DNA of 64,000 nucleotides from a virus (IMGVR_UViG_3300037466_003648:128001-192000); one strand, 5' to 3'; positions 2,770 to 37,122 are shown, counted from the stretch's first letter. Numbers and translations are program-made. The notes: generated by a model not told the origin, from the letters alone.

Positions 2770-3294
2770 ATGGCCACCTCCGATTCTACCGACCCGTCGA
2801 TCTCAGCCAGCTTCATGGCCGGGTGGGTCTACGCGGGTGTCCCCTACACCAAGGACGCGAACCGGACGGCCAACCCGGTGGGCACACCAAACTGGTTCTC
2901 CCGCGGTTCCCTGCACCGTGCCAAGTGGATTCGGCAGGGTCCCTTCGTCGACGTCAATGGGATGTACGAAGTCCCGGAGGACCACGCGTTGGTCTACTGG
3001 GAGATCAAGCAGGGCACCCCGGAGTGGCAGCCCCCGGTCGAGGAACGCATCCCCGCCATCCTGGCGATTCTTCCGATCGACCTGGAGTTTGTCGCAGGCA
3101 ACTGGCCGGGGGCAACCAGCCCACCGCTGTTGTTCCAGTCGGTCGATCCCGACCTTGCACTCATCGCCCCACAGGACGATGTCGCGGTGTGGTTCGCCCT
3201 GAGCGGACCGGCCCACATCGTTGGGCGGTTCCGCGTACCTGACGAGGTGGATCTGGGCTTCGGCCGCAGCAACCTGGGTGGGTGGGGACTCTAG
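2770..3294 (+). CDS. hypothetical protein
   Basis: 174 aa ORF abutting its neighbours, GC3-biased codons. Confidence 0.7.
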   Translation: MATSDSTDPSISASFMAGWVYAGVPYTKDANRTANPVGTPNWFSRGSLHRAKWIRQGPFVDVNGMYEVPEDHALVYWEIKQGTPEWQPPVEERIPAILAILPIDLEFVAGNWPGATSPPLLFQSVDPDLALIAPQDDVAVWFALSGPAHIVGRFRVPDEVDLGFGRSNLGGWGL

Positions 3295-3295
3295 C

Positions 3296-3964
3296 ATGAG
3301 TGCCACCAAGGACATCGACCAACTGATCGCCGACATCCGTCTCGCGACTGACTTGGTGGCCGAGAAGTCCTTGGTACGTCGCCTGCGTGGCGGTGCTGGA
3401 ACCCTGGACATCTTGAAAAGCGCGTTGGCACGCCTGGCCGAGATCCGTCAAACGTTCTCGATCCCCAACGACGTAGAGATTCTGGACTGGCTGAAGACAC
3501 AGCTTGCCGATCCACCGGCTATCACTGGTAAGGTGATCACTCCCGAAGTTGCGGAGCGCAGTGCTCAACGGTGGCTGCCTTCACCGGATGGTCCCGAACC
3601 TCCTGTTGTGGTCGAACCAGCCTCATTGGAACGGTTGCGACGTCGTCGTCCCAAACAGTGCGCTCGCTGCCCCAACAGCTTTATCCCGACGGGCTACCAA
3701 CAACCCTTCTGCCCTTCGTGTGTCGCTGCAATTGACATCGAGAACGCAGAGATCCGTCGCCAACAGATCGCGGCCGATCCAGAAGACGACAAACGGTCCG
3801 AGTCCGACACCTGGCCCAGCAGCAAGGTGAAGGGATTCCCTTGTGGCAGCTGCGTCAACGGTAAGAAGAACGACCTGTCCGAGAGCGGCTTCGAGTGCAC
3901 CACGAGCTGCGCCCGTGCGTGCGCCCCATGGGGTCCTGCGTGGAAGTACGAAGCGAAGGCTTGA
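3296..3964 (+). CDS. hypothetical Cys-rich (zinc-finger-like) protein
   Basis: ATG 1 nt after the upstream stop; CARC...CPSC and CGSC...CTTSCARAC motifs. Confidence 0.65.
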   Translation: MSATKDIDQLIADIRLATDLVAEKSLVRRLRGGAGTLDILKSALARLAEIRQTFSIPNDVEILDWLKTQLADPPAITGKVITPEVAERSAQRWLPSPDGPEPPVVVEPASLERLRRRRPKQCARCPNSFIPTGYQQPFCPSCVAAIDIENAEIRRQQIAADPEDDKRSESDTWPSSKVKGFPCGSCVNGKKNDLSESGFECTTSCARACAPWGPAWKYEAKA

Positions 3965-3989
3965 CAGGATTGCTTCTTGGTGCGATGAT
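3961..3989 (+). promoter_or_regulatory. sigma70-type promoter (P-a) for a short RNA
   Basis: TTGACA 3961-3966, 17 bp spacer, extended -10 TGc-GATGAT 3981-3989; TGGTGC/GCACCA inverted repeat flanks the -10. Confidence 0.55.
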
Positions 3990-3995
3990 AGCACC

Positions 3996-4077
3996 AGCCT
4001 GAGCTTCGGTTCCGTGTCCCAAACATTCCCGAAGCCTTCGCACGAAGCCCCTGCCCGCACAGGGGCTTCGTGCTGTT
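3996..4077 (+). ncRNA. putative ~80 nt small RNA
   Basis: follows P-a; stem GCTTCGG 4003-4009 / CCGAAGC 4029-4035 with a 19 nt loop; ends in a 14 bp hairpin; no credible ORF. Confidence 0.45.
4040..4077 (+). terminator. 14 bp perfect hairpin, probable terminator with a weak U-tract
   Basis: GCACGAAGCCCCTG 4040-4053 / CAGGGGCTTCGTGC 4060-4073, then TGTT. Confidence 0.55.
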
Positions 4078-4104
4078 GACACATGGATCGATCCATGGTA
4101 ACTT
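4076..4104 (+). promoter_or_regulatory. sigma70-type promoter (P-b) with a palindromic spacer
   Basis: TTGACA 4076-4081, exactly 17 bp spacer containing the perfect palindrome CATGGATCGATCCATG 4082-4097, extended -10 TGg-TAACTT 4096-4104. Confidence 0.7.
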
Positions 4105-4110
4105 ACATAC

Positions 4111-4395
4111 ATCAGGCTCTGTCGGAGTGCGGGACACGGAAGACAACCTGCTGGGAGCGAAGGGGCCGCTAGACGCCTGACGCCCTCGAAGGAAGAACCC
4201 GCGGAGTTCTTCACCGTTGTCCCTACCCTCCAATCGTACCCACGGGTCGAGCGGAGTTCCCGAAGGCTGGCCTTGACGGCCTGTACGACTGGAACGTGGG
4301 GGTAGGGGGACACGGTTACTTCGAGGGAGACTCAGCTAACCACTTCCGCCTGACGGGCGGGCGCGCGAGACGAGCCACACGGCTCGTCTTTTTGT
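4111..4395 (+). ncRNA. putative ~285 nt structured non-coding RNA (family not recognised)
   Basis: bounded by P-b and an intrinsic terminator; nested helices TCAGGC/GCCTGA, CGGAAG/CTTCCG, GCTGGG/CTCAGC, CCCTCGAAG/CTTCGAGGG, GAAGAAC/GTTCTTC, CCGTTGTCCC/GGGACACGG, TCGTAC/GTACGA. Confidence 0.65.
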
Positions 4396-4397
4396 TT
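4367..4397 (+). terminator. intrinsic terminator
   Basis: AGACGAGCC 4368-4376 / GGCTCGTCT 4381-4389, 4 nt loop, followed by TTTTGTTT. Confidence 0.85.
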
Positions 4398-4425
4398 GGG
4401 ACCGCGGGTCCTGGGAGGAGATCCG

Positions 4426-4707
4426 TTGCTAAAACTGTACGCCCTGCTAATGATCGTGGGAGCGATCATCGCCTTGACCGGCTTGCTCTGGGCGATCCCG
4501 GAGTACGGTCAGCTGTACCGCACCTGGTTCGTGCTTTCCTCCACCAAGTCGACCGATGCGGTTTGGTTGACACGGCTCTCCGCCCAAGTGCAGATCCACC
4601 GCCTCAACTGCTTTGCCGAGGCGCTGGGTTCCTTGGCCGGACTCTTCATGATCGTGGGCGCCTTGTTAGGCATCTCGATCGAGCGGTTGCGTTCGGCGCC
4701 GCGTTAG
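4426..4707 (+). CDS. small membrane protein (two hydrophobic segments, 93 aa)
   Basis: GGAGGAG RBS before TTG 4426; hydrophobic N- and C-terminal stretches; stop overlaps the stop of the convergent giant gene. Confidence 0.65.
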   Translation: MLKLYALLMIVGAIIALTGLLWAIPEYGQLYRTWFVLSSTKSTDAVWLTRLSAQVQIHRLNCFAEALGSLAGLFMIVGALLGISIERLRSAPR

Positions 4708-7700
4708 AACCATCCGGTGTGAACCAGGGCATCGTAGACGACGTTGGAAGCACGGTCCAGCACACCGGAACGTGTCGGGGTCGGCGGTGCCACGTCCGCG
4801 CGGGCAGCGTGTGGGCTTGGGGTGTGTCCCTTGATCTGGGCACGACCGCCCTTGACCGTCACCGTTGGGCGCGGCTTTGGCTGCGCCTTGTTGGCGGAGT
4901 CGTTGCTGCCCTGTCGTCCCTGGGGCGTGTTGGTCTGGAGGGTGACGACCATCTTCTTCTTGGCGTTCTTGGGCGCCAGGGACGGCGGCTTGGGCAGCGG
5001 AGACATCTGCTCCAGAATGTCTGGTGCCAGCACCAAAGGCGGGTGGGTGTTCTCACCCTCCCGATCCTTGCGCACGCGCTCGCGCATCTGCAAGTTCTGG
5101 ACGACCAGGTCCGGCGACGGGTGGTTACGACGCCAGAACTCGACCATGTCTCGGTCCGCCTGACGCATGGGGCTCTGGGGCACCAACAGGTCCGTCTGGA
5201 ACGTGCGTTCGTAGTGCCAGGAACCCGCCGCGCCCATCAGCACTTCGAGACCCTTCTTCTTGTTTGCCCATGCGGCCTTCGCGTAGTCGCTCAGGTGCGT
5301 TGTCACCTGGTTGTACTTGTCCTCGTCGCGTGCGTAAGGGCTCAAGCCGCCCGACGCCTGTGGGAACGCCTCGAAGACGGCACGCGCCAAGCCCGTCTGC
5401 CAGTTGCCGGGCATACGCTGGAACTTGTAGGTGTCCATCACACGGTAGTAAGGCACGCCTTGAATGACCGCCGGGCGGACCAGCGCACGACCGATGGCGA
5501 GCTTCTCCGCCTCGACGTCGATGCCGCGCTGGGACGTGCTGACGTAGTCGGCGTACTCGATCGAGTGCGTCTTGCGCTTCGCAGACTCTTCCAGTGCGAA
5601 GCGGTAGCGGTTCAGCTCGTGGCTGGTGAAGCTGCTCTCCGTCATGGCGCCCATGTACGAGTTGTCGTGGCGGCCGAGACCGGCCCAGAACTGGCCTTGG
5701 TAGCGCACGAAGGACGGCACCGATGCACGACCAATCCAGCGCAGCACCTCACCAGGTGCGCTGGCAACGGTACCCACCGTGTTGGTCAGCAACCCCTTGG
5801 TGGCCGTGTTGATCTTGTTGATGCCCCACACGGTCGCACCACCCGCAACAACCGCGGCACCCAACCCAGCCGCCACAGGTGCCCACGCGGGAGCGGTGAT
5901 CACACCGGCCGCGATCAGCCCGGCGGTGCCCGCAGCCGCGGCACCAAAGGCGAGACTGCCCGTGTACATACCGGTAGCACCCGACACCACGTTCAGACCC
6001 GCCTCGCGGCGCTGGGTCTGCGAGGTACCAAAGACGGTTTGCAGGGCGTCCCAACCCACCGCAAGCCCCATCGAGACACGACCGAATGCCTTCGAGGCCG
6101 CCCAGGTCGCTACACGACCCAAGACCCGCATGCCCCGCGAGAGCTTCTGACCCATCCAGTGTGCCGCGTGTCCGGTTGCCGTCGCCAACTGACCCAGTGC
6201 ATGCAGCGCGGTCGACGTCGTCACCATGCCCAGGTTCCAGGTCGCACGGCTCCGCTCTTCGGGGGACGACGTCGAATCGGACAGGGTGTTGATGTCCAAG
6301 GCCGCGAAGGCCGCGCTCAAAGCGAGCGTGCCACGCAATCCCGCAAACGTGTTCGGTGCGCGACCGGGACCGGGTACTGGACCCAGCGGGATGACAGCAG
6401 GCGCCACTGCCGTGTTGGGACGACCCCGGACGGCAGCTGTTGCCCCAGAGCCCAACAAGAGCTGGGGAGTCGAACCCAGAGGAATGACACCGGGCGTGAC
6501 CGCCGTGTTGAGACGACCCCGCGGGGCTGCTACCGTACCAGGACCCAACAAGAGTGGATCGGCGTTCACCGGACCCAAGGCGATCAGGTCGGGCGTGTGC
6601 GCCCCGTTAAGGCGTCCACGGATCTGGGAGGTGGCGGGAGTACCCATGCCCAACACCAAGGGGTTTGCCGGGGCTCCCAGTGCGATCACTTCGGGCGTCA
6701 CGGCACCGTTGAGACGACCCCGCGTGATGGGTTCGGCCGTTACGCCCGGACCCAACAACAAAGGCGCCGTTCGCGTCTGCAGAGAACGCAGCCCCATGCC
6801 ACGGCTGTAGGTGCGTGCCGCGCTGGCAGACTCTTCCAATGGAGCTGCTGCCACGCTCAAGCCGCCGCCCATGGTCAACCCACGGCCCCGCAGCAGCTCG
6901 TAGCCGATCGGCTGACGGGTGGCGGGAGCGGGTTGGTCGGGATGCAGCATGCTCAACCCCGGTCCGTAGGTGGCTCCGTTCCGAGCCAACAGACTGACCG
7001 TCCGGGTCGACAGGCTACCGGGAACACGGCTCTCGGCCATCGCCATTGCATCTTCAATCAGGTGCATCGTGGGCGTTGGACGTACCGCGAAACGTCCTGT
7101 GCTTGGGTCGCGGTAGCGACCTGGCTGCATGATGGGATCGGGACGGAAGCGTGGACGACGCGGCACCACCCCGTAGGTCATTTCGACCAGGTCGGGGTGC
7201 GTAGGGTAGCTCTCACCTTCAACCGGCATGAAGCCGAAGCGCTCACGGCCGGTGGTCCACCGATAGCCATGATCATTCACCAGACGATCGAGAATGGGCA
7301 GCATGCCGCCTCGCTGACCCGCAGGGGCGGGACGGAACCGGCCATCAGGACCACGGTGCGGCAGTACTCGACCGGGCAATTCGATGACATCGGGCGTCGC
7401 CACCGCGTTGGCGCGACCCACCCCGCCCGTTTCCATTTGCTGGCGGAGTACCGTCAACTGCTTGCGAACGGGATCGGTGTGCGGCGCATGCGTACCGTTG
7501 AACAACGCGCCCAACACGTCGTTCTTGGAATGTCCCCACGGGAGACTCCAGACACCCTTGTGTTGGAAGGCCACAATGTGGTCGGTGTTCATCACACCAC
7601 GACCCAACAGACGGGGGTGCAGGTCCCGACGCGGGGCAGCGTTGACCCGATTGTACTCGGGCGTGAACGAGGGATGATCCCCGCGATCGGGCGAACGGAA

Positions 7701-10700
7701 GCGGCCCTGCGAGAAACCAATACCTCCTTCGCGCATGCCGTCCATGACGATGCGCAGGTTGCTGTCACCCAACACCTGCGACACGGAGGTTGCACGCGGC
7801 ATGGCCAAACCATGGGCGCCCGTACGCTCCAAGGGTGCGTCGAAGCGCAGACGCGCATCTCCGTGGAATGGGGTTGCGTGTGCGGGCGCCGCGGGACGCA
7901 GCCCGGCCGCGCGTGCCTGCATATCTTCGCGCAGCGCCACCAATTCTGTGCGAACGGGGTCGACGCCGATCATTCCCTGTTGGGTAGAGACGTGGGCAGC
8001 CACCGTTTGTGGAGCCGCCTCGGGCTTGCGCCAGCCCATCACGGTTGCCAACTGGCGTCCGACCATCGACAAGCCCTTACGGGCCAGCTGCGCAGCGGCG
8101 ATCGTGCCAAAGATCAACGTCGTCCCTGCCGCGAGCGTCGCCAGGTACTGCAACGTGGTCTGGTCCGCATTGCCTTGCGTGGGGTTCTTGCTCATGTCCC
8201 GCACGCCGTACGCGATCGGACGACCTGCACTGTCGTGGGTCGTGCCCGTGAAGAAGCCCCGCTCGCCCAGCATCTGGCGGTACTTTGTCTGCACCTGCTC
8301 GGCGCGCTGACGATCGTACCCCATGCGCTCCTGCAGCAGGTCCGCAATGCGGTCACCCCCAAACTTGCTGTCGACGCTGCCCGCGATGGCTTCCTGCAAC
8401 GCCTTGAACTGGGGGCTGGGGGCCGCCGTGCCGAACGGATGGAAGATCGCGTCGATCTTGCGACCGGGAATGAAGCTGTTCATTTCCGCTGCCGTCTGGA
8501 CCGTCTTGTTGCTGTTGTCCGCGAACTTACCATCACCAATGTAGGTGAACCAGTGCCGTCCGCTGGAGGGGTTCATCGACATCGGATCGGAGCCGGGCAC
8601 GAAGGTCGCGTACAGCACGTCGCCGACGTGCACGCCACCCGTTGCCACCAGGGTGCTGAGCTGAGAGATCGGCACGCCGCGGTGCGCCAGGTCAGCGGGA
8701 ACATCCGTGCGGATGTCCTTGCCGCCCATGCGCATGATCAGGTGACGCGAGTACTGGAAGCATTCGTGCGCGGTCGCAACGAACGGGCCGTTGAGGTGTG
8801 CAATCATCTGCTCGCGAGAAGGTGCCGCACTGGGCGGCTGAATGCCCGCGGCTTCTAGGATCGCATCCGCCTTCTGCTGCGGCGTGGCGATGCGACCCAG
8901 GCTCGCGTTCAGCTTCTTGCTCCAGTAGCCGGGATCGTCTTGTGGGAGCCAACGGCTCTCGTTGTAGAGGTTGGCACGCACGCGACCGGCCATGGTCTGT
9001 GCGATCGCAGGAGACAGCCCCGCACGCTCGACCATGAACTTGTCCAAGCTTCCCTTGTAGCCACCCTTCATGTACTCCGGCAGCACGCGCTCCAAGGTGG
9101 ACTGCTGCTCCTTGGTTAGCAGTGGCTTGTCCTGCGCGACCGAACTCGGTGCCAGGGTGCGAATCTCGCGGATCGTCTGCTCGATGTGGCTGCCGTACGT
9201 GCGGTCGGTCGCGTAGATGCCCGTGATGTTGTAGCCGAAGGCAACGGCATTGTGGTCCTTCTTGTACTGGGCCAACGCCTGTGCGTAGACGGGGTTCTGT
9301 ACGAACAGCTTGCCGTGCGCCACCATCGCCTCTTCCAGCGAACCGTAGTTGGCGAAGTCCGCGTACGTGGTCACGCGCCGACCGCCGACGTCTTCCCAGG
9401 TCTTGAGGTGCAAGCTGCCCCGCGAGCCACGACCCTTGATGCCGAACAGGTTAAAGTCGCCGATCTTGGAAGCGCCCCAACCAGATTCCCACGCCGCCTG
9501 AGCCAGTGTCACTTCGGCCGGTACACCGTACAGCTTCTCAGTCATCTCGGCACCGGCGCGCAGGCTCGCGACGAAGCCCGCCGCTCCCTGACCCAGGTGC
9601 GTACGAGGCGCGTTCGCCAACAACACCGCGTTGCGCATGTCGGTGCCGCTCGCGGGCTTGATGACCTCGCCCGTGAAAGGCTTCTGTGGGCGACCGCGAC
9701 CAGTGGTCCCAATCGTCGCGTCACCACCCACGAACCCACCGTAGGCATGACCCGTGCGATGCCAAACACCACCCAGGATGCCGGTTTCGTAGATCAAGCC
9801 GCGGCGCAGCAGCTCGCCTTGGATGATGCTGTCGGGACCGGACGCCGACCGGTAGCGGAAGGCACGCGCTGCCTGGGCGTTACCCAACCCACCCGTGCCG
9901 CGACCCCGTTGCATGTAGAGCGACTTGAGGCTGTAGTCGTGGGCGGGCATGTCGTTGCCACCCTCCATCAGCCCCAGCGCGTCGCGACCGACCATGTCCA
10001 GCACGGTCTCGTGACCCATCGCACCCGACAGGCGCAGACGCTCCTGTTGGGCGAAGGCCAACGCCCCCGCGTCCATCATCCAGCCAGTGCCGCCACCCTC
10101 CGGCGTGGCCGAGTTACGGCCCCAGAAGATCGGGCTTGCCTGCGCCCACAAGGGCGACAGCGAGAAGCTCCACCCTTCCTGGTTCGCCTTCGCCGCCTCG
10201 AAGAGATTGCCCGGCGCGAGCATAGGACCGATAAAGTTGGCGGTGCCGATCAGGAAGCTCGCAAAGCCGGTCGGCTGCGTCTGTCCCTTGGGCGTCAGCG
10301 TACGTGCCAGTCCGTAGAGTGAACCGGTGACATTCGCCTGCAGCCCAATCGCGGCACGGCTGATGGCATTGCCTACCATCGACGAGCCGGGGATCGAGGC
10401 TGCCGCGCGACCGCTGGCACTCACCACGGACGTCATGGTCGTGCCCAGCGAGGTCGAAGCCCGCTCCGCCCAATTGCGCTCTTCGGGGCGCTTGCTCAGC
10501 GCGCTCTCCGAGAGGTGGTGCTGCGCCATCATGCCGCCGAAGCCCAACGCGGCGAGGCCACCACCCACCAACAACGCAGGCAATCCCACCAAACCGAAGT
10601 AGCCAACAGCCGCGGCGCCCGCCACGGCGCTGCCACCCAAGAACAGTTCGGCCGTCAGCGAGGCACCACCCGCCTCCGCGAACTTCTCCTTCTGCTCCGT

Positions 10701-13700
10701 CGTCAGGAAGTCCGACGACTGGGCGGCCATGCCCGTCGCCACCTGGGCGATCGAGAGTCCTTGCATGACACGACCAAAGCCGTCAAAGGCACCCAACCCC
10801 AGACCCACAGCACCGGCAGCACCCCGACGCAGGTAGCCGGGTGCCGTGGACTTGATCTCGGTCAGGCGAGCTTCCACCGCCGCGCGATGCGCCGCGTAGC
10901 CGCCGGTCGGATCGTTGCGGAAGAGGTAGTCCGCGGGCTTGGTCGTGGCGCCGGGGATGTGCATCCCTGGTGTGTGGGGTGTGAAGGCGGGCTCCAAACC
11001 GGCTCCCGCAACCACGTTCTTGGCGAGTCCCGCGCCTGTCATCCCTGCCTCGCGGAACACCGCGTTCATGTCGATCGGTGCGGTGCCCGCGATCGTACCG
11101 AACTCGTTGAGCATGCGACGCATGATCTGCTCGTACTCGCTCATGAGATCGTCGGTGATCGCGGCCGTCGACGTCGTGGGCAGGCGCAGACCCAGGTCGC
11201 CGATGGCCTTCTGGGTCTCGAACCACGCCGCACTGGGCATGTGACCTGCAGGCATCGAGGTCGGGTGCAGCTTGTCCAACACGTCGAGCACACGTCCCAG
11301 CGACGCACCCATAGCACCCGCCGTGCGGATCTGGGGCAGACCCTCGTAACGCGCGAGCAGCGTGTTGAAGCTTCGCTCAACGAGCTTCGCCTTGTCGCGT
11401 CCGGCCATCACCGTACCGCGAGGATCGGTGCTGTCGGCAAAAGGACGGCCTTGGTAGTCGCCGTAAGCGCGCAACCCATCGCCACCCATCACGGGCAGGT
11501 CGACGCGGTACAGCCCCGCCTTGTTACCGGACAGTGTCCAATGGGGATGGGCGCCCGGACCATGCGGCGCCTCTGGCGAGAGCAGCACGCCGTGCGTCTT
11601 CGCCTGGTGCGTGGGCATGTAGCGCTCGACACGCTCCTGCCAGGTCTCGCGCTCGCCACGCACCCCACGCCAGGCAGCGAACATGGGACGCGCCATGAAG
11701 TGTGCTGCAAACGGTACCGCCGCCAGCGCACCCACCGCCGCGGCGCCCACCAGTGTCGTGGGGTTGGCGAGCCAGTTGACCTGGTACTCGCTCAGCGTGC
11801 GTGCGCCGGTCGGGATGCCCAGCAGGGTGCCTTCCTCCGTGCGAGGTGCTCCCATCAATGCGGCAATGTCGTCTTCGGCCTCCACGTCGCTCGTGCCGGT
11901 GCGATCGGCCTGACGCTGCCCCGCGTACGTCTTGCTGAAGTCCGCCTGGTCCAGCGCTCCGGCCTTGCGCCAGATACCGCCCATCAGGTTGCCCCAGCGG
12001 AACTGCTGGGTCACGCCACCGTCCATACCTCGCACTTGTGCGGTGTAGGTAACTTGGTGCAAGAACGCGGGCTTCGCGCCACCCGGCAAGAACTCGCCGC
12101 GGTAGCGACGGTACTCCGACGGCCACATGCCCAGTGCCGCACGCGACTCGTTGTAGCGCACGGCCATGGCCAGCTTGAGTGCGGGGTCCGCTTCGTACAT
12201 GGGCGAACCCGGCATGAACATGCGACCCATGAATGCGGCGCGCTTGCGGCCGACCCATTCGGTCTCCAACACCTTGCGGGAGCCCCCGATCGCGGCAGCC
12301 AATTGCGAGTCGATCTCACCCGACGACTTGGTGCGCGTGACGTGCCAACCCGTGTTGTAACCGATCGACATGAGTCCGCCGAAGAACATCTTCGTGATCT
12401 TCCAGGTCGCCATCTCCATCGAGTCGGGACCCGTCTGCTTGAACGCAGCGTGCAGACCCAAGTCGCTGTAGGCTTCCGCCGTCATGAAGAACTCTTCGGG
12501 CTTGCCCATGCCGACGGTCTGCTTGGCCGCGCGGTTGAGCATGTCCCAGATACCCAGGTAACCCGGACGGAAGCGGCCCTTGTCACCCGCCGCGCCCGAC
12601 TCGGCCGAGAGCGAGTCCGTGGGACCCGCCGCGAAGCGACGCGCTTCCTGTGGATCGATCGGGGCGGCCACGTTCTTGAGGTCGACGGTCTCGCCGAAGA
12701 GTCGGCTCGCCGAGTTGCCGATCAACGGGATCGCCTTGAGCATCTGGCGGTAGCCGCCCATCTGCTCGCGGTAGCCCTGAGGGTCACCTGTGCTCATCGC
12801 CCGTGCAAAGGCGTAGCCGGTGTAGCCCATGAACAGACCCACGGCGCCACGGGCACCCACACGGTAGCCCCGCGTCAGCTGACCGGTGCGGCGCGTCAAC
12901 TCGTTGACCCAGCCCACGTTGCCGCGGGTGATGCCCTGTGCAGCCACCGTGAAGCCCGCGTTCAGCGCGCGAGGTACCAGGGTCAGGGGCAGCTCGGCCA
13001 GCTCGTTCGCCAGTCCGAAGCCCACCGCCCCCATGCCATAGGCGAACTTGGCGATGCCCCGAGACTTGACCATGCGCTCGGCCATCCCGCGGTTCATGTT
13101 GCCCAGCATACTGAACCCCGAGCCGCGCATCTCGCCCGTACGGATGTAGGCGGCAACGTTGCGTCCCGCATCGAGCAGGCTGCCCCCGTTGCGTGCGAAC
13201 AGCCCCGCCCCGGCGTAGGCACCCAGAGGCGCAAAGCCGTAGGTCGTGGCGAGACCGACACCAATCATTCCAGCACCCAAGCGGACCGAAGCTTCCCAGT
13301 TGGTGTTGGGCTCGTAGCCGAAGCTCATGCCGAAGCGCACGGCATTCGCCGTCCAGCCGTCCTCGCCGCCGGTCGCGTCGATGAGGGCACGCAGGGCGCC
13401 GTCCATCGGGATCTCTTCTTCGTTCTTGTGGTCTCGGTACCAATCCCGGAAGCCCTTGCGACCGCGCAGATCGGAGTAGTAGTACGGGAGCTTGACACTG
13501 CCGTGGATGCCCGACGGCATGCCCAGCATCGCCGTCAGCATGAAGGTGGTCTTGCCACCCTCGACGACGGCGCCGCCCCAGACCGAGCCCAGGGGCAGGT
13601 AACCAATACGCATACCGTACGCCAGCGACAGCGAGACCTGTGCCTTGTCGGCCTGACCCGCCCATTGCTGCGCCATGTCGAGCGTCGCCCGGATGGCACC

Positions 13701-16622
13701 CAGTTCTGCCTGGTCACGAGGACCGGCGCCAGCTGCCACCAGCTTTTCCATGCGCCCCAACGACATGCGCTCCGTCTCGTTGACCATCATCGTGGTCGCC
13801 ATGGTCTTGGTGACGACCTTGTACATGAGGTCTTCACGACTGGCCATGAACGACATGGTCATGTCGCGCTGCATCGCGGTCAGGCGATCGACAAAGTACC
13901 CGGCGATGCCAGACGCCGACCAGTCTCGCAGACCCGCACGCTCCACCTCGCGGTAGGGGTTGTAGCCCCGCAGGTCGCTCGCCACCGAGACCATCTTGGT
14001 CGCGCGCTGGGCAGCCCCCAATGGGTTGAAGGGGTTCATCGACATCCCGGCAACGAACTGGGCACCCCAACTCAAGCCGGTGCTCAGCCCCACCGCGAGC
14101 GCGGGCATGATGTCCAGGATACCCGCCAACCCGCTGCGCGGTGCCAGGTCGGCCCAGCCAAAGTTGGTGACCGTCCCCGCCGCCCCGTGCAGCGTGTTCT
14201 CGCGGTCGATCTGGGTCTCCAGGGTCTCGCGCTTGGCAGACGCCAGCATGCCATAAGCGTGGGTCGCCACCGCGCCGACAAACAGTGCCTGGACGCCACG
14301 ACGGGCCAAGGCACGTCCGGGAGTCAGGCCGGTCTCGCCGTAGAGGTGTCCATAGGAACGCGCGAATTGACCTTGTGCGTGGGCATCACGCCACAGCTCT
14401 TGGGCGCGCGACCAGTCGCCCCGCAGCGCCGCACCCCACCCCGCGCGGCGTGTCGCGCGCATCCCCGCGATGTGAGGGTTTGGTGCCAGGTTGAGCACGT
14501 CGGCGACGAGCCCGCCACCCGGCAGCTCGCGAATGAAGCGATTGGCAACTTGGTTGACCGCCCGAAAACGCTCGTGCAGCGTCATGCGCTTGGCGTCGTG
14601 CTCGATCTCGTAGATCGTGTGAACATGCCCGCTAGGCAGCGTCACCGTCTTGACGTTGATCTTGCCGCCGCGCTGACGACGCAGGTCGAGCGCGAGTTGG
14701 CGGTCGGTGACCTGGACCTTCTTGAGCGACGACTTGTGGTCGTACACGCCCATGACATCGTCGATGAACTTGCGGCCAACGTCCCCCGCTACCGCCCCGT
14801 AGGCTTCGCGCTGGACGCCCCACAAACCCTTGGAGATGCCCGCGTGCACGTCCATCGCGTACTCGCCCGCCTGACCAGCCGCCACCGTCGCGTCACGCAC
14901 GAACGCCGACACCGGGCCATGCACGGGCGCGTTCAGCACCCGATCCCCGATGGTACGACTGATCCGCCCCATCCCGGAAGCCGCCCGCGCACCGATCTCG
15001 GCCATGAACATGGTCGACCGGATCAAGCCGATGTTCATTCCCAGGTTGAAGAGCGTGTCGTCTACCCAACGAGCGCCATCGGCATAGGTGCCCTCCGCCT
15101 TCGCGTCGATCGGACGGTAGTCGGCAGAGCCGTAAACCCGCAGCTGCTCGTCTTGATGGTTCCGACGATCGATCTGGGCGCCCAGGTTGACCAGCAGCGA
15201 GCCCAACGGCCCGCGGTTACCGCGTGCCTCGGTCAGCTCGCTCGCCGTGGCCGCCCAGCCACTGCCGAAGCGCTGGTTGACGTAGTCCGTGATCTGACCG
15301 CGCCACAGCTCGCCGAAGGTGGGCAGCATTGCCTCGCGGTCGCTTCGCGTGATGACGTCCGGCATGGACGACGGCAACTGCCCCTCGTGTCCACCTGCGT
15401 ACATCTCGGTGTAGAGGTGGCGATAGAAGCGCCCGGCCGAACGCATCGGGTTGACGAACGATCCCTGCTCGTGCGTGGCCGCTGCCCACGCGTACGCCTT
15501 GCGCGTGTCGGCATCGAAGATGACCTGGGGGTCCACGACGTACTGCCACGCCTTGCGTTGGCCGCCCAGCGAGATGCCGTGCAGGGGCATCATCGACGGC
15601 ATGAAGGTGCCCAACTTCGTGAACGGCATGCGCAACTGCTCGCCCGCACCGAAGTCGAAGTTGGACTGAACCTGACGAGCGATGTCGGCTGCCACACGGG
15701 CATCGCGGGCGTGCAGCATCACTTCGGTGGAGCGCTCGCCGTTGTAGCCTTCCACCGCGGTCTTGGAGAAGCGCATGGAGCCCACCATGTAGGTGTCACC
15801 CATGGCGATGACGTTGGCGTGCCACGGGCGGTTGCCCCAACCCACATGCAGGTTGGTCAGCGTGCGTCCTGCCGCCGTTAGCTTCTGGAACGCACGACCC
15901 TCGTTATTGATGTCTTGCTGGTTCAGACCACCCAAGCCCACGTAGACCTGATCGCCGCGGCGCGCCTTCTGGATGATCGAGTCCAGGACGTGCGGATCGG
16001 AGAGCGTGGCCGACGCGATGTACAACGCTGCGTGGTTACCCCGATCCCCGATGATGCGGCTCAGCACGTCCAGCGCGGTGCCCGTGTCCTTGGGACTGGC
16101 GACCAGCAGATTCTGGGTCGAGACCGGCGCACGACCAGCAGCGATCGCGCCCAGCACCGTGTCCATCTGGCGGACGAGGTTGGCATCGCGGGTTGCCACG
16201 AAGTAGTTGAACTGGGTCTTGTCCTGGCCGGAGAAGCGGCTGTACTCCGGCAGCGTCGCCATGCCCAAACCCGTCTTGGTCATGTTGGCGGTGCCAACGA
16301 ACATCACACGATCGCCGGTCGGGCTCGTGAACTCGCCGACCTTGGCGTGCAGACGCGAGCCGAAGGTCTTGCGATCGGCTTCGATCAGGTTCGTGTGACC
16401 CTTCAGGGTCTCGTAGGCTTGGGGGTTGGACCACTTCGCGGTGGTGCGCTCCGAACCCACGATGCGACCGCCGCCGGACAGAACCGAACGCGTGAGCCGG
16501 TTGTCCTCCACCTCGTAAGTGGTCATGACCGAACGCGACGACATACCGAGCAGGCTCAGTCGAGCCTGCTCGTCATCCCGGCCAAACCAGGTAGGCGAGG
16601 TGCGATCGTCGAAGGTGGGCAT
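4704..16622 (-). CDS. giant tape-measure-like virion protein with PLD, GH73 glucosaminidase and NlpC/CHAP-like domains (3972 aa)
   Basis: Ala/Gly-rich helical body with hydrophobic segments; HAK...GTAN PLD motif; AQAAWESGWG...NLFGIKG GH73 motif; ECFQYS...RHWFTYIG Cys/His pair. Confidence 0.75.
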   Translation of the reverse strand: MPTFDDRTSPTWFGRDDEQARLSLLGMSSRSVMTTYEVEDNRLTRSVLSGGGRIVGSERTTAKWSNPQAYETLKGHTNLIEADRKTFGSRLHAKVGEFTSPTGDRVMFVGTANMTKTGLGMATLPEYSRFSGQDKTQFNYFVATRDANLVRQMDTVLGAIAAGRAPVSTQNLLVASPKDTGTALDVLSRIIGDRGNHAALYIASATLSDPHVLDSIIQKARRGDQVYVGLGGLNQQDINNEGRAFQKLTAAGRTLTNLHVGWGNRPWHANVIAMGDTYMVGSMRFSKTAVEGYNGERSTEVMLHARDARVAADIARQVQSNFDFGAGEQLRMPFTKLGTFMPSMMPLHGISLGGQRKAWQYVVDPQVIFDADTRKAYAWAAATHEQGSFVNPMRSAGRFYRHLYTEMYAGGHEGQLPSSMPDVITRSDREAMLPTFGELWRGQITDYVNQRFGSGWAATASELTEARGNRGPLGSLLVNLGAQIDRRNHQDEQLRVYGSADYRPIDAKAEGTYADGARWVDDTLFNLGMNIGLIRSTMFMAEIGARAASGMGRISRTIGDRVLNAPVHGPVSAFVRDATVAAGQAGEYAMDVHAGISKGLWGVQREAYGAVAGDVGRKFIDDVMGVYDHKSSLKKVQVTDRQLALDLRRQRGGKINVKTVTLPSGHVHTIYEIEHDAKRMTLHERFRAVNQVANRFIRELPGGGLVADVLNLAPNPHIAGMRATRRAGWGAALRGDWSRAQELWRDAHAQGQFARSYGHLYGETGLTPGRALARRGVQALFVGAVATHAYGMLASAKRETLETQIDRENTLHGAAGTVTNFGWADLAPRSGLAGILDIMPALAVGLSTGLSWGAQFVAGMSMNPFNPLGAAQRATKMVSVASDLRGYNPYREVERAGLRDWSASGIAGYFVDRLTAMQRDMTMSFMASREDLMYKVVTKTMATTMMVNETERMSLGRMEKLVAAGAGPRDQAELGAIRATLDMAQQWAGQADKAQVSLSLAYGMRIGYLPLGSVWGGAVVEGGKTTFMLTAMLGMPSGIHGSVKLPYYYSDLRGRKGFRDWYRDHKNEEEIPMDGALRALIDATGGEDGWTANAVRFGMSFGYEPNTNWEASVRLGAGMIGVGLATTYGFAPLGAYAGAGLFARNGGSLLDAGRNVAAYIRTGEMRGSGFSMLGNMNRGMAERMVKSRGIAKFAYGMGAVGFGLANELAELPLTLVPRALNAGFTVAAQGITRGNVGWVNELTRRTGQLTRGYRVGARGAVGLFMGYTGYAFARAMSTGDPQGYREQMGGYRQMLKAIPLIGNSASRLFGETVDLKNVAAPIDPQEARRFAAGPTDSLSAESGAAGDKGRFRPGYLGIWDMLNRAAKQTVGMGKPEEFFMTAEAYSDLGLHAAFKQTGPDSMEMATWKITKMFFGGLMSIGYNTGWHVTRTKSSGEIDSQLAAAIGGSRKVLETEWVGRKRAAFMGRMFMPGSPMYEADPALKLAMAVRYNESRAALGMWPSEYRRYRGEFLPGGAKPAFLHQVTYTAQVRGMDGGVTQQFRWGNLMGGIWRKAGALDQADFSKTYAGQRQADRTGTSDVEAEDDIAALMGAPRTEEGTLLGIPTGARTLSEYQVNWLANPTTLVGAAAVGALAAVPFAAHFMARPMFAAWRGVRGERETWQERVERYMPTHQAKTHGVLLSPEAPHGPGAHPHWTLSGNKAGLYRVDLPVMGGDGLRAYGDYQGRPFADSTDPRGTVMAGRDKAKLVERSFNTLLARYEGLPQIRTAGAMGASLGRVLDVLDKLHPTSMPAGHMPSAAWFETQKAIGDLGLRLPTTSTAAITDDLMSEYEQIMRRMLNEFGTIAGTAPIDMNAVFREAGMTGAGLAKNVVAGAGLEPAFTPHTPGMHIPGATTKPADYLFRNDPTGGYAAHRAAVEARLTEIKSTAPGYLRRGAAGAVGLGLGAFDGFGRVMQGLSIAQVATGMAAQSSDFLTTEQKEKFAEAGGASLTAELFLGGSAVAGAAAVGYFGLVGLPALLVGGGLAALGFGGMMAQHHLSESALSKRPEERNWAERASTSLGTTMTSVVSASGRAAASIPGSSMVGNAISRAAIGLQANVTGSLYGLARTLTPKGQTQPTGFASFLIGTANFIGPMLAPGNLFEAAKANQEGWSFSLSPLWAQASPIFWGRNSATPEGGGTGWMMDAGALAFAQQERLRLSGAMGHETVLDMVGRDALGLMEGGNDMPAHDYSLKSLYMQRGRGTGGLGNAQAARAFRYRSASGPDSIIQGELLRRGLIYETGILGGVWHRTGHAYGGFVGGDATIGTTGRGRPQKPFTGEVIKPASGTDMRNAVLLANAPRTHLGQGAAGFVASLRAGAEMTEKLYGVPAEVTLAQAAWESGWGASKIGDFNLFGIKGRGSRGSLHLKTWEDVGGRRVTTYADFANYGSLEEAMVAHGKLFVQNPVYAQALAQYKKDHNAVAFGYNITGIYATDRTYGSHIEQTIREIRTLAPSSVAQDKPLLTKEQQSTLERVLPEYMKGGYKGSLDKFMVERAGLSPAIAQTMAGRVRANLYNESRWLPQDDPGYWSKKLNASLGRIATPQQKADAILEAAGIQPPSAAPSREQMIAHLNGPFVATAHECFQYSRHLIMRMGGKDIRTDVPADLAHRGVPISQLSTLVATGGVHVGDVLYATFVPGSDPMSMNPSSGRHWFTYIGDGKFADNSNKTVQTAAEMNSFIPGRKIDAIFHPFGTAAPSPQFKALQEAIAGSVDSKFGGDRIADLLQERMGYDRQRAEQVQTKYRQMLGERGFFTGTTHDSAGRPIAYGVRDMSKNPTQGNADQTTLQYLATLAAGTTLIFGTIAAAQLARKGLSMVGRQLATVMGWRKPEAAPQTVAAHVSTQQGMIGVDPVRTELVALREDMQARAAGLRPAAPAHATPFHGDARLRFDAPLERTGAHGLAMPRATSVSQVLGDSNLRIVMDGMREGGIGFSQGRFRSPDRGDHPSFTPEYNRVNAAPRRDLHPRLLGRGVMNTDHIVAFQHKGVWSLPWGHSKNDVLGALFNGTHAPHTDPVRKQLTVLRQQMETGGVGRANAVATPDVIELPGRVLPHRGPDGRFRPAPAGQRGGMLPILDRLVNDHGYRWTTGRERFGFMPVEGESYPTHPDLVEMTYGVVPRRPRFRPDPIMQPGRYRDPSTGRFAVRPTPTMHLIEDAMAMAESRVPGSLSTRTVSLLARNGATYGPGLSMLHPDQPAPATRQPIGYELLRGRGLTMGGGLSVAAAPLEESASAARTYSRGMGLRSLQTRTAPLLLGPGVTAEPITRGRLNGAVTPEVIALGAPANPLVLGMGTPATSQIRGRLNGAHTPDLIALGPVNADPLLLGPGTVAAPRGRLNTAVTPGVIPLGSTPQLLLGSGATAAVRGRPNTAVAPAVIPLGPVPGPGRAPNTFAGLRGTLALSAAFAALDINTLSDSTSSPEERSRATWNLGMVTTSTALHALGQLATATGHAAHWMGQKLSRGMRVLGRVATWAASKAFGRVSMGLAVGWDALQTVFGTSQTQRREAGLNVVSGATGMYTGSLAFGAAAAGTAGLIAAGVITAPAWAPVAAGLGAAVVAGGATVWGINKINTATKGLLTNTVGTVASAPGEVLRWIGRASVPSFVRYQGQFWAGLGRHDNSYMGAMTESSFTSHELNRYRFALEESAKRKTHSIEYADYVSTSQRGIDVEAEKLAIGRALVRPAVIQGVPYYRVMDTYKFQRMPGNWQTGLARAVFEAFPQASGGLSPYARDEDKYNQVTTHLSDYAKAAWANKKKGLEVLMGAAGSWHYERTFQTDLLVPQSPMRQADRDMVEFWRRNHPSPDLVVQNLQMRERVRKDREGENTHPPLVLAPDILEQMSPLPKPPSLAPKNAKKKMVVTLQTNTPQGRQGSNDSANKAQPKPRPTVTVKGGRAQIKGHTPSPHAARADVAPPTPTRSGVLDRASNVVYDALVHTGWF

Positions 16623-35362: not shown

Positions 35363-37122
35363 TACACCACCGCCTTGGTCACCGTGACCGTGCCACTGCC
35401 GTACGCGTACGTGTGGGTTGCTGTCTTTCCGTTTGCAACGTAGACCTTCGTTGCAATCGATCCGTCGCTGTTGTACGTGATGGTCAAGGTCTTGACCGTC
35501 GTCGCGCCGTTCTTCCAGGTCACCGTTGCCAAGGTCCCATCCGCGTTGAGCGTCTGGTCTTCCTCCAGGGTACCCGTCTCCATGTACGTGCCCATGTCTG
35601 GGAGCATCGTGGAGTCGATCACACCGCCTGCAGTCGTCTTGACGATCGCGTTAGCCGTGCTTGTAACTGCTGGAGCGGATCCCTGGAGTGTGATTGCATC
35701 GATGTCGTTGTCAGAGATCGAGCAACTGATTACTACCTTAGCAGTACTAAGTGGGATATTTCCGGCAACAAATGTGATCTTGGTTCCCGTGCGGGTGTAG
35801 TCGGTTCCTCGTACTTGGATCGCACCCGACTTCCACACCATCTCGTAACCACCCGTGGTGGGCAAGGTGTAGGTGGCGTTACCGGTTCCCGCGTCGGCAG
35901 CAACGATGGCCGGGACGGACATGGCACCCAGATCGGTGGCAGCGACCGACACACTGATCGTCACCTTCGACGTACTCAGTGGGATGTTTCCCGCCACAAA
36001 GGTGATCTGGTTGCCCGTGCGTGTGTAGTCGGTGCCGCGTACCTGGATCGCACCCGACTTCCATACCATTTCGTAGTTGCCCAGGTACGGGAGCGTGTAC
36101 GTGGCGTTGCCCGTACCCACATCTGCGGTGACCACCACGGGCACCGACATGGCGCCTGGCAGGTTGCCGATCGTGGACAACACACCTCCAGAGTAGGCAA
36201 TCGAAGTGCCATCGACCGCGTTATCCAACAACACCGTGCGATCGGCCCCATTGACACGCGTGAAGACGCCGCCGGTCGTGGTCCAGAAGTCTCCGTCCAG
36301 GGGTGTGGTGGGTGCGACGCCGTGCGGTAGATTCAACGAGGCTGCGCCTGCAGTTGCCGCTGACAACATGGTTCGTCCGTTCTCACTGACGGAGAACAGC
36401 AGCGTACCACCGGCCGCTGTGTTCGCGTTCGTGCGCACGGCGAACTTGCGCGTGGTGTCGCTGTTGTCCGAGTCGATCAAGACAATGACATCGGCCGTGG
36501 AATTGACCACCGTACCATTGCTACTATCGACAAACAGCCCGTTGTTGGCGTTGAGTCCCAGGTAGCTGGTTGGAACCGCGTTTGCCGTCGTCGCGGCAAT
36601 CGCGTGAACCGTTGCTGTCAACGTAGTGTTGTTGCTTGCATCGATCGCGCCAACCGTGATATTGCCATTGTCCGCCGCGTTGCGGAAGGTCAACAGGCCC
36701 GCGTTACCAATGACGACACTACCCTTGATGTACGCACCGTTGGTGGGTACCTTGCTCACATCAGCATAAGCACTGGATACGAGCAACTGACCAACATTGA
36801 CACCCACGGCAGCGCTGCCGTTAAGAAAGTTGATGGGGACCGTCGACCGCAGCTGACCGCTTGTCAAGGTCAGACCACTGGCACCCCCAACCGTCATGTT
36901 ACCGGCGAAGTTGGGGGTGGTGGCGTTGTACAGGGCGACGTTGGTCGACAGCGTGCTGTCCGCCAACCCGTTGGTACCCAAAGCAGCGTTGACGTTGGCG
37001 CCGTTGATCGAGATCGTGCCCGCGGACAGCCCGATGTTCGATCCAACGATAACGGCGCCGCGGACGGCGCCCGCAGCGAGGGGTAGGTGGTTGGCTGGGT
37101 AAAGGCTACCTTCGTAAGACAT
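35362..37122 (-). CDS. tail fibre protein
   Basis: 586 aa; internal tandem duplication of a ~68 aa module; YD-like C-terminus. Confidence 0.7.
   Translation of the reverse strand: MSYEGSLYPANHLPLAAGAVRGAVIVGSNIGLSAGTISINGANVNAALGTNGLADSTLSTNVALYNATTPNFAGNMTVGGASGLTLTSGQLRSTVPINFLNGSAAVGVNVGQLLVSSAYADVSKVPTNGAYIKGSVVIGNAGLLTFRNAADNGNITVGAIDASNNTTLTATVHAIAATTANAVPTSYLGLNANNGLFVDSSNGTVVNSTADVIVLIDSDNSDTTRKFAVRTNANTAAGGTLLFSVSENGRTMLSAATAGAASLNLPHGVAPTTPLDGDFWTTTGGVFTRVNGADRTVLLDNAVDGTSIAYSGGVLSTIGNLPGAMSVPVVVTADVGTGNATYTLPYLGNYEMVWKSGAIQVRGTDYTRTGNQITFVAGNIPLSTSKVTISVSVAATDLGAMSVPAIVAADAGTGNATYTLPTTGGYEMVWKSGAIQVRGTDYTRTGTKITFVAGNIPLSTAKVVISCSISDNDIDAITLQGSAPAVTSTANAIVKTTAGGVIDSTMLPDMGTYMETGTLEEDQTLNADGTLATVTWKNGATTVKTLTITYNSDGSIATKVYVANGKTATHTYAYGSGTVTVTKAVV

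Follow-up and report, generated by a model that had tools for sequence, protein, structure and literature searches.

A probable two-RNA module in an uncultured soil phage: a large structured non-coding RNA outside Rfam, preceded by a small RNA predicted to dock on it

What is made from positions 4111-4397 of the DNA analysed here (the window, a 64-kb stretch taken from an IMG/VR virus record of 205,180 bp that has terminal repeats, bases 128001-192000) is the question raised by an earlier note, which had read this interval as a non-coding RNA of no recognised class, framed by its own promoter and terminator. All the letters quoted in that note stand where it had placed them. The best explanation of the interval is a gene for a multi-helix non-coding RNA outside Rfam, about 256 nt long and followed by a terminator. 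This RNA has a companion: it forms the larger half of a two-RNA module, and the genome holds two paralogous copies of it. We consider it very probable that this module is real.

The phage is uncultured and comes from soil, with a G+C content of 60-67%. By its large terminase the closest isolated phage is Microcystis phage Ma-LMM01 (31% identity), and the closest cellular ribonucleotide reductases (RNR) are those of Cyanobacteria and Sericytochromatia. The RNA locus closes a plus-strand replication block encoding primase, RNase HII, a UvrD-like helicase, class II RNR, a PD-(D/E)XK nuclease and an HU-like protein, and beyond it lies a minus-strand block whose first genes encode a 3972-aa virion protein and the terminase. 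A survey of natural variants found the stretch in seven soil and rhizosphere DNA runs, with 0 differences; the runs listed as containing it included no RNA run. The features of the module and of the gene that follows it are collected in Table 1.

Table 1. Features of the two-RNA module and its downstream gene, in window positions
Feature	Position	Strand	Description
Promoter P1 of the small RNA	3961..3989	+	TTGACA, 17 nt, GATGAT; TG ahead of the -10
Small RNA (s1)	3996..4075	+	About 80 nt; hairpin 4003-4009/4029-4035 with 19-nt loop; terminator hairpin 4045-4054/4061-4070
Recognition loop of the small RNA	4010..4020	+	TTCCGTGTCCC; exact complement of 4131-4141
Promoter P2 of the large RNA	4076..4104	+	TTGACA 4076-4081; 17-nt spacer ending TGg; TAACTT 4099-4104
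5' domain	4109..4154	+	H1 4109-4116/4147-4154; H2 4120-4123/4142-4145; H3 4127-4129/4135-4137
Large structured RNA body	4111..4366	+	About 256 nt from the predicted start; three members align
Site A, predicted docking site	4131..4141	+	GGGACACGGAA; within the H2-closed loop of the 5'-proximal hairpin
Box B5	4173..4182	+	ACGCCTGACG; same-sense twin of box B12
Core	4183..4327	+	H4 4183-4191/4319-4327; H5 hairpin 4192-4212; H6 long arm 4214-4228/4300-4315
Variable tip of the long arm	4229-4299	+	Branched in all three copies
Conserved unpaired motif	4332..4341	+	CTCAGCTAAC; in the orthologue CTCTGCTAAC; seen in alignments
Box B12	4347..4356	+	CCGCCTGACG; followed in folds by a small G+C hairpin, 4357-4368
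Intrinsic terminator of the large RNA	4367..4397	+	Stem 4367-4390, 10 pairs (6 G-C), loop of 4, T run to 4397 (scanner)
Membrane-protein gene	4426..4707	+	93 aa, two transmembrane segments; RBS, no sigma-70-type promoter of its own

The statement that the RNA belongs to no known class was borne out by the covariance models of Rfam 15 (among them tmRNA, RNase P, SRP, 6S, riboswitches, T-box, GOLLD, ROOL, HEARO and C4 antisense RNA), which gave 0 matches at the gathering score in the 64-kb window and 0 matches at E<=10 in the interval 3900-4500. For the two homologues described below, the best Rfam scores were 13-22 bits against cut-offs of 35-95 (the top one 21.8 against 49). ARAGORN found no tmRNA in the 64-kb window, and a distant tRNA-Ala as its sole tRNA. 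The conserved TAA of GCTAAC could close a tag-like frame, but this idea was abandoned, since the peptide ends differ and ARAGORN is silent. As the earlier note had also held, there is no credible open reading frame, no frame being conserved across the three copies; on the minus strand, open frames of 213 and 158 aa run over the window copy, and the other two copies show pieces of at most 79 aa in other frames. Both RNAs of the window copy combine the attributes of a small-RNA gene, namely an own promoter, a Rho-independent terminator and no conserved ORF.

The RNA family has three known members in two phages. One is a paralogue in the same genome (83277-83680, 48 kb upstream; nhmmer, E 2e-11), and the other is an orthologue on the Logan contig SRR13704969_19001, where it occupies a 454-nt gap at the syntenic position (nhmmer, E 3e-34). 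This contig derives from a related soil phage, with 74% amino acid identity in the terminase (TerL) and 55% in RNR. The layout is common to all three copies: a promoter, a small RNA with its terminator, a second promoter, and the large RNA. Further phages were sought through homologues of conserved proteins (terminase and RNR) and then through their loci. Terminase homologues identified a subclade, their loci ending inside the giant virion-protein gene short of the RNA site, and the loci of the RNR homologues span it. In the contigs of four relatives, which represent about two phage lineages, there is no gap at the site, no RNA module and no small membrane gene; the contigs of a fifth lineage stop before the RNA site, and a 512-nt gap elsewhere in them is without match. 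Following the homologues of the membrane protein brought nothing beyond short contigs (561 and 955 bp). Sequence searches gave no further member among 50,697 phage records (blastn), and pattern scans of IMG/VR that used conserved blocks from either the 3' or the 5' domain returned nothing except a piece of the same phage or a chance match. Pattern scans also gave 92 matches in JGI metagenomes, all of them chance or an unrelated coding repeat, and nothing beyond one chance match in GTDB species genomes. A covariance model of the 5' domain, applied to 284 kb of loci from relatives, to the whole genome and to four IMG/VR records, recovered only the three known copies.

Single-sequence thermodynamics is not significant (window copy, plus strand, z = -1.75, with 11 of 200 shuffles folding equally well; paralogue, z = -1.82), and the case for structure consequently rests on comparison. 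The 5' domain could be aligned unambiguously with MAFFT, its pairs being counted by a tool: the three nested helices comprise 17 pairs, 94% paired, of which seven changed on both sides, against 0-1 when the partner strand was slid by 1-3 columns. The whole-core alignment was structure-guided and made by hand, and its counts are to be read with the caveat that H4 and H5 of the paralogue were fitted to the structure: the six helices common to all three copies hold 52 pairs, 139 of the 142 cells being canonical (97.9%), and 19 pairs changed on both sides as against 0-2 when slid. Shuffling of the core columns gave a mean of 6.8 such pairs, and none of 1000 shuffles reached 19. The covariation counts are small because there are only three members from two phages. 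Every pair of H4, H5 and H6 is canonical in each copy (100%), and 6, 4 and 2 of these pairs, respectively, changed on both sides; in the paralogue the stems of H4 and H5 are built, at the equivalent position, from essentially unrelated sequence. The long arm hardly varies in its 3' strand. Minimum-energy folds contain H5 and the long arm in every copy, and H4 in the window copy and the orthologue. Since Rfam has no match and the homologues that were found conserve their core helices with covariation, the description as an unrecognised structured non-coding RNA of a phage stands.

The seven helices listed in the earlier note all appear in the predicted fold of 4105-4368 (terminator left out), and two of them are not conserved. 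The pairing of CCCTCGAAG with CTTCGAGGG, the hairpin at 4192-4212 and the long arm are the ones kept with compensatory changes in all three copies. CGGAAG/CTTCCG (4137-4142/4343-4348) and GCTGGG/CTCAGC, by contrast, belong to the window copy only and cannot form in the other two. The outermost helix, TCAGGC/GCCTGA, is possible in the three copies (6, 4 and 5 bp), but a competing local helix (4109-4116/4147-4154) covaries better, and the assignment is ambiguous in that the 5' AGGC may pair with the local CCTG (H1), with box B5 or with box B12. Pairing of site A with the 5' strand of the long arm was considered as an alternative fold and dropped, since the sequence of the paralogue does not allow it. 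The plus-strand orientation held up as well, the paralogue folding better on the plus strand than on the minus strand (-108.4 vs -90.3 kcal/mol), a strand specificity that is due to G-U pairs.

The unpaired parts are conserved in a different manner. In boxes B5 and B12 the letters after CGCC are alike within each copy (TGAC, TAA and AGTT) and differ between copies, and no complementary partner of these boxes is conserved across the three modules. A search for a conserved partner that could pair with the unpaired motif at 4332..4341 gave none. Identity between the two phages is 88-91% over the 5' domain, compared with 37-50% at the DNA level (33% protein) for the flanking upstream gene and 38-48% (29% protein) for the membrane gene. 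The 5' domain of the window copy is closer to the orthologue (88%) than to the paralogue (52%), and the 3' domain (4300-4368) contains blocks of 19, 10 and 12 nt that are identical between the paralogues and different in the orthologue. This likeness of the paralogous 3' domains suggests gene conversion or a shared phage-specific partner.

Every large RNA is preceded by a small-RNA unit of 80-110 nt, with its own promoter and a terminator hairpin at the end. Its gene lies in tandem with that of the large RNA and shares its strand; in the window copy the distance is 115 nt. The hairpin of the small RNA, which also appears in single-sequence folds, is present in the three copies with unrelated stems (15 pairs, 36 of 36 cells canonical, six pairs changed on both sides), and its loop of 19-22 nt is conserved. 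In the window copy, the match of this loop to site A is the longest Watson-Crick run between the two RNAs, and 3 of 200 shuffles reach it. Cognate complementarity amounts to 11 nt in the window copy and 12 nt in the paralogue; the orthologue reaches 11 with a single G-U pair. The position is equivalent throughout, and these matches are the longest or near-longest runs between the partners. The paired letters form, in both RNAs, a small apical hairpin that exposes CCC(C) or GGG(G), an arrangement classically associated with nucleation between loops and subsequent strand exchange. The central docking pair is G-C in the window copy and C-G in the paralogue, with both RNAs changed, and the swap also preserves the apical stem of each RNA. 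For the two pairs of the 205-kb genome, the gain on co-folding is -13.5 and -13.7 kcal/mol for cognate partners and -4.9 and 0 for crossed ones. Since the central docking pair differs between the two modules, each small RNA is predicted to address only its own large RNA. The covariance model of the 5' domain matches the small RNA of the paralogue on the opposite strand. RNAduplex applied to the full-length RNAs gave meaningless long duplexes and was discarded.

Promoter motifs frame both units. P1 is the sole sigma-70-type site that a consensus scanner reported in 3000-6000 (10 of 12 matches), and the paralogue and the orthologue have a counterpart at the equivalent position. P2, which had been described as a consensus extended -10 promoter, does have the consensus -35 hexamer, the 17-nt spacer and the TG of an extended -10, but its -10 hexamer agrees with TATAAT at only three of six positions, which is why the consensus scanner missed it. 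The orthologue's large-RNA promoter is identical to P2 in both hexamers and in spacing. A genome-wide scan found 13 P2-type, sigma-70-like sites in the 205 kb. None is on the minus strand, and five lie in or just after the two RNA modules. As for the other end, the strong intrinsic terminator was recovered by a scanner where the earlier note had it; in the orthologue this position is taken by a terminator unrelated in sequence, and the paralogue has none at the end of its large RNA. The spacer of P2 is occupied by a perfect 16-bp palindrome (4082-4097, centre GATCGATC), and several of the 13 sites have GATCC or GATCG in their spacers; together these may represent an operator or a methylation-sensitive motif. 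Past the terminator, and ahead of the RBS of the membrane gene, there is a small hairpin, GGACC-GCG-GGTCC (4401-4413).

From these sequence features we infer that both units are transcribed, that they pair in the cell and that the pairing has a regulatory outcome. P1 (3961-3989) would make the terminated small RNA of about 80 nt, and P2 (4076-4104) the large one. The small RNA would then dock loop to loop, its C-rich loop on the G-rich loop of the target, and the contact would grow to an intermolecular helix of 11-13 bp as both small apical stems open, so fixing which fold the large RNA adopts. The most likely outcome in cis would be that the large RNA acts as a leader in which polymerase either halts at 4367-4397 or continues. 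Read-through at the window copy and the orthologue would lead into the promoter-less membrane-protein gene, and at the paralogue past a further promoter and a 33-aa ORF into the phage tRNA array. Taken as a whole, cis outcome included, the reading as a structured leader addressed by a small RNA, which decides between termination and read-through downstream, is offered tentatively, with confidence a little below even.

This reading is the first choice because of the promoter-less membrane gene that occurs only with the module, because the paralogue is open towards the tRNA array, and because of a candidate anti-terminator pairing. The membrane gene has a homologue at the same place in the orthologue phage (29% identity; the proteins are 90-93 aa), and among the examined syntenic loci it was seen only where the RNA module is present. 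The paralogous module (83212-83680) lies between a MazG-like gene and a phage tRNA array, and its 3' side carries a TTGACA promoter (83687), a 33-aa ORF with a good RBS and then the tRNA genes. In the nascent RNA of the window copy, the 5' half of the terminator pairs with the 5' end of the large RNA with a predicted probability of 0.97-1.0, beside the docking site, which makes it a possible anti-terminator in this copy. Against the leader stands, first, that this pairing is strong in the window copy only, the corresponding pre-emptor pairing of the orthologue being weak (probability 0.25-0.37) and made with other partners. Since the paralogue has neither a terminator nor the membrane gene, one common cis mechanism is not evident. 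The membrane-protein family is also found without room for such an RNA, and the body of about 250 nt, with its three-way tip, boxes B5 and B12 and an unpaired motif, far exceeds the needs of an attenuator. The 93-aa protein itself has no Pfam or PHROG match; its family is scattered, with members of about 100 aa, a motif YR[LI]NCFAEG and 22 cluster representatives at E<1e-3.

By its logic, the module comes closest to the immunity RNAs c4 of phages P1 and P7 and CI of phage P4 and to the antisense control of plasmids, in which loop-addressed small RNAs of swappable specificity act on a neighbouring transcript. In c4 and CI, a phage RNA hairpin carries loop letters that can pair with sites in an adjacent same-strand transcript (C4 antisense RNA, RF01695), a few loop letters set the specificity in P1 versus P7 heteroimmunity through matched substitutions in RNA and target, and the outcome is blocked translation or early termination of the neighbouring unit. 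The module shares the loop match to a neighbouring same-strand transcript (11, 12 and 11 nt) and the matched change (G-C to C-G). It departs from c4 and CI, which are cut from the transcript that they control, in that its small RNA is framed by an own promoter and a terminator hairpin, and its target is a conserved 250-nt fold rather than short sites in an mRNA leader; no covariance-model match links the two.

Antisense control of plasmids includes attenuation in pT181 and pIP501, RNA I/RNA II of ColE1 and CopA/CopT of R1. Like these systems, the module has a hairpin near the 5' end of the target for a loop-loop kissing contact (predicted here), an intrinsic terminator further down (in the window copy and the orthologue) and paralogous versions that would be orthogonal through loop changes, as in plasmid incompatibility. 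The plasmid regulators, however, are encoded on the opposite strand and hence fully complementary, whereas the small RNA of the module is encoded on the same strand and shares 11-13 nt with its target. For a pre-emptor pairing like that of pT181 and pIP501, the predicted probability is near 1 in the window copy and 0.25-0.37, with other partners, in the orthologue, and the paralogue has no terminator at all.

With T-box leaders the module shares a long multi-helix leader with a terminator at the end, which would sense an RNA in trans by loop pairing; unlike them, whose ligand is tRNA, it lacks the T-box motif and the features of Stem I, has no Rfam match and is followed by a gene that does not encode an aminoacyl-tRNA synthetase. 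If the large RNA is truly a leader that reads a small RNA, the T-box idea of RNA sensing RNA would extend to phage gene control. The 6C RNA of Actinobacteria (PMC6486639) resembles the small RNA in presenting a C-rich hairpin loop to G-rich targets without the need for a long duplex. 6C, however, has two C-rich loops and many mRNA targets (PMC6486639), compared with one loop and a dedicated neighbour as the apparent target here, and there is no covariance-model match of the module to 6C. On these comparisons the two-RNA module is outside all of these families: no model matches it, its regulator is a tandem gene that appears to be independently transcribed, and its target is large with a conserved fold.

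A quite different role for the large RNA is nearly as likely as that of a leader, though it too has less than an even chance: a trans-acting structured RNA that stands alone as a discrete, stable product, whose level or activity is merely set by the small RNA (by an RNase III duplex, for example) and to which the downstream genes are unrelated. Taken together at that same strength, its roles could be those of a ribonucleoprotein scaffold, a catalytic RNA, a decoy that binds some factor of the host or the phage, or a sponge that takes up the small RNA of the module. Such a product would account for the own strong promoter and the canonical terminator at its end (window copy and orthologue), for the presence of the module in two unrelated gene contexts and for the size and conservation of a large body with a three-way tip and a conserved unpaired motif. 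That the 3' domain is near-identical between the paralogues while the 5' domain follows the orthologue would make sense if both paralogues bound one phage-specific partner, and the joint variation of boxes B5 and B12 as a direct repeat is what a pair of sites for one partner would show. One copy also adjoins the tRNA array, as is the case for many orphan phage RNAs. The large orphan RNAs GOLLD and ROOL of phages and prophages lie beside tRNA genes. The module resembles them in its large conserved phage fold and in the placing of one copy directly before a tRNA array, and differs in being half their size or less, in having an apparent dedicated partner small RNA, which GOLLD and ROOL are not known to have, and in matching no model; as a stand-alone product it would be a new orphan class beside a phage tRNA array. 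This explanation, however, leaves the promoter-less membrane gene, with its RBS, after the terminator in both phages, and only in these, without a reason; the complements of the conserved unpaired motifs occur in the genome at chance level only; and in the paralogue, which has no terminator, a defined 3' end would need processing.

It seems doubtful that the large RNA is a new structured class of phage RNA with a function of its own, kept in orthogonal and individually addressed copies. Under this equally doubtful heading would fall a riboswitch-like element that senses RNA, with the small RNA as its dedicated ligand, or a ribonucleoprotein or catalytic core, and, as part of the same proposal, B5 and B12 as two contacts for one partner. 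The large structured RNAs described from phages are few, and for almost none of them is a defined partner known. The module offers predicted ends, a docking helix of 11-13 nt and a specificity that apparently resides in one central pair, all of which make it testable, and one genome provides two natural orthogonal versions. The RNA pair could also serve in engineering as a compact orthogonal RNA-RNA switch.

Another cis-acting role, processive antitermination, appears improbable. Here the folded nascent RNA would make host polymerase ignore terminators and Rho, so that expression continues past 4367-4397 and through the 3.8-kb untranslated tRNA array, with the small RNA as an anti-antiterminator, a set of proposals to which we give the same low weight. 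It would suit two paralogous copies that each lie directly behind a strong promoter, one followed by a terminator and a gene and the other by a long untranslated tRNA array, and it needs no conserved alternative pairing of the terminator, which fits the weak result for the orthologue. Known antitermination RNAs such as put of HK022 and EAR of Bacillus are about 70-120 nt long, with two hairpins, and the position of the large RNA, just behind a promoter and ahead of terminators, fits them. The large RNA is two to four times larger, and the promoter at 83687, between the paralogue and the tRNA array, renders the array independent of the paralogue.

An element acting at the DNA level, such as an origin of replication or a set of protein-binding sites with a palindromic operator, is very improbable. 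The module contains four occurrences each, in both orientations, of GGGACACGG and of GCCTGA (complements counted), and the locus ends the replication gene block and has the 16-bp palindrome in the P2 spacer. However, H4, H5 and the small-RNA hairpin are kept as stems despite unrelated sequences, which argues for selection on single-strand pairing and not on duplex sites; G-U pairs make the fold strand-specific; each unit is framed by promoters and terminators; and the cumulative GC skew turns about 10 kb from the RNA locus and tracks gene orientation. That a G+C-rich spacer merely folds like any other, with fortuitous promoter- and terminator-like motifs, as the modest z-scores (-1.75 and -1.82) and the weak -10 hexamer might suggest, is scarcely credible and is refuted by three copies with one architecture, 19 compensatory pairs, a 5' domain conserved at 88-91% next to flanking genes at 37-50%, and five of 13 promoter sites in or after the modules.

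Some observations concern the neighbourhood of the module. The giant virion protein encoded beside the terminase (4704-16622) ranges from 3972 to 5866 aa across relatives and contains SLT and M23 peptidase domains, and a homologue search with its C-terminal 770 aa returned the same phage only. Inteins are present in the RNR, terminase and UvrD-like helicase genes of relatives, and the copies in the 205-kb phage are intein-free. The tRNA-Ala(GGC) reported by ARAGORN is unusually long, at 89 nt (36968-37056), and lies on the plus strand within the minus-strand structural block.
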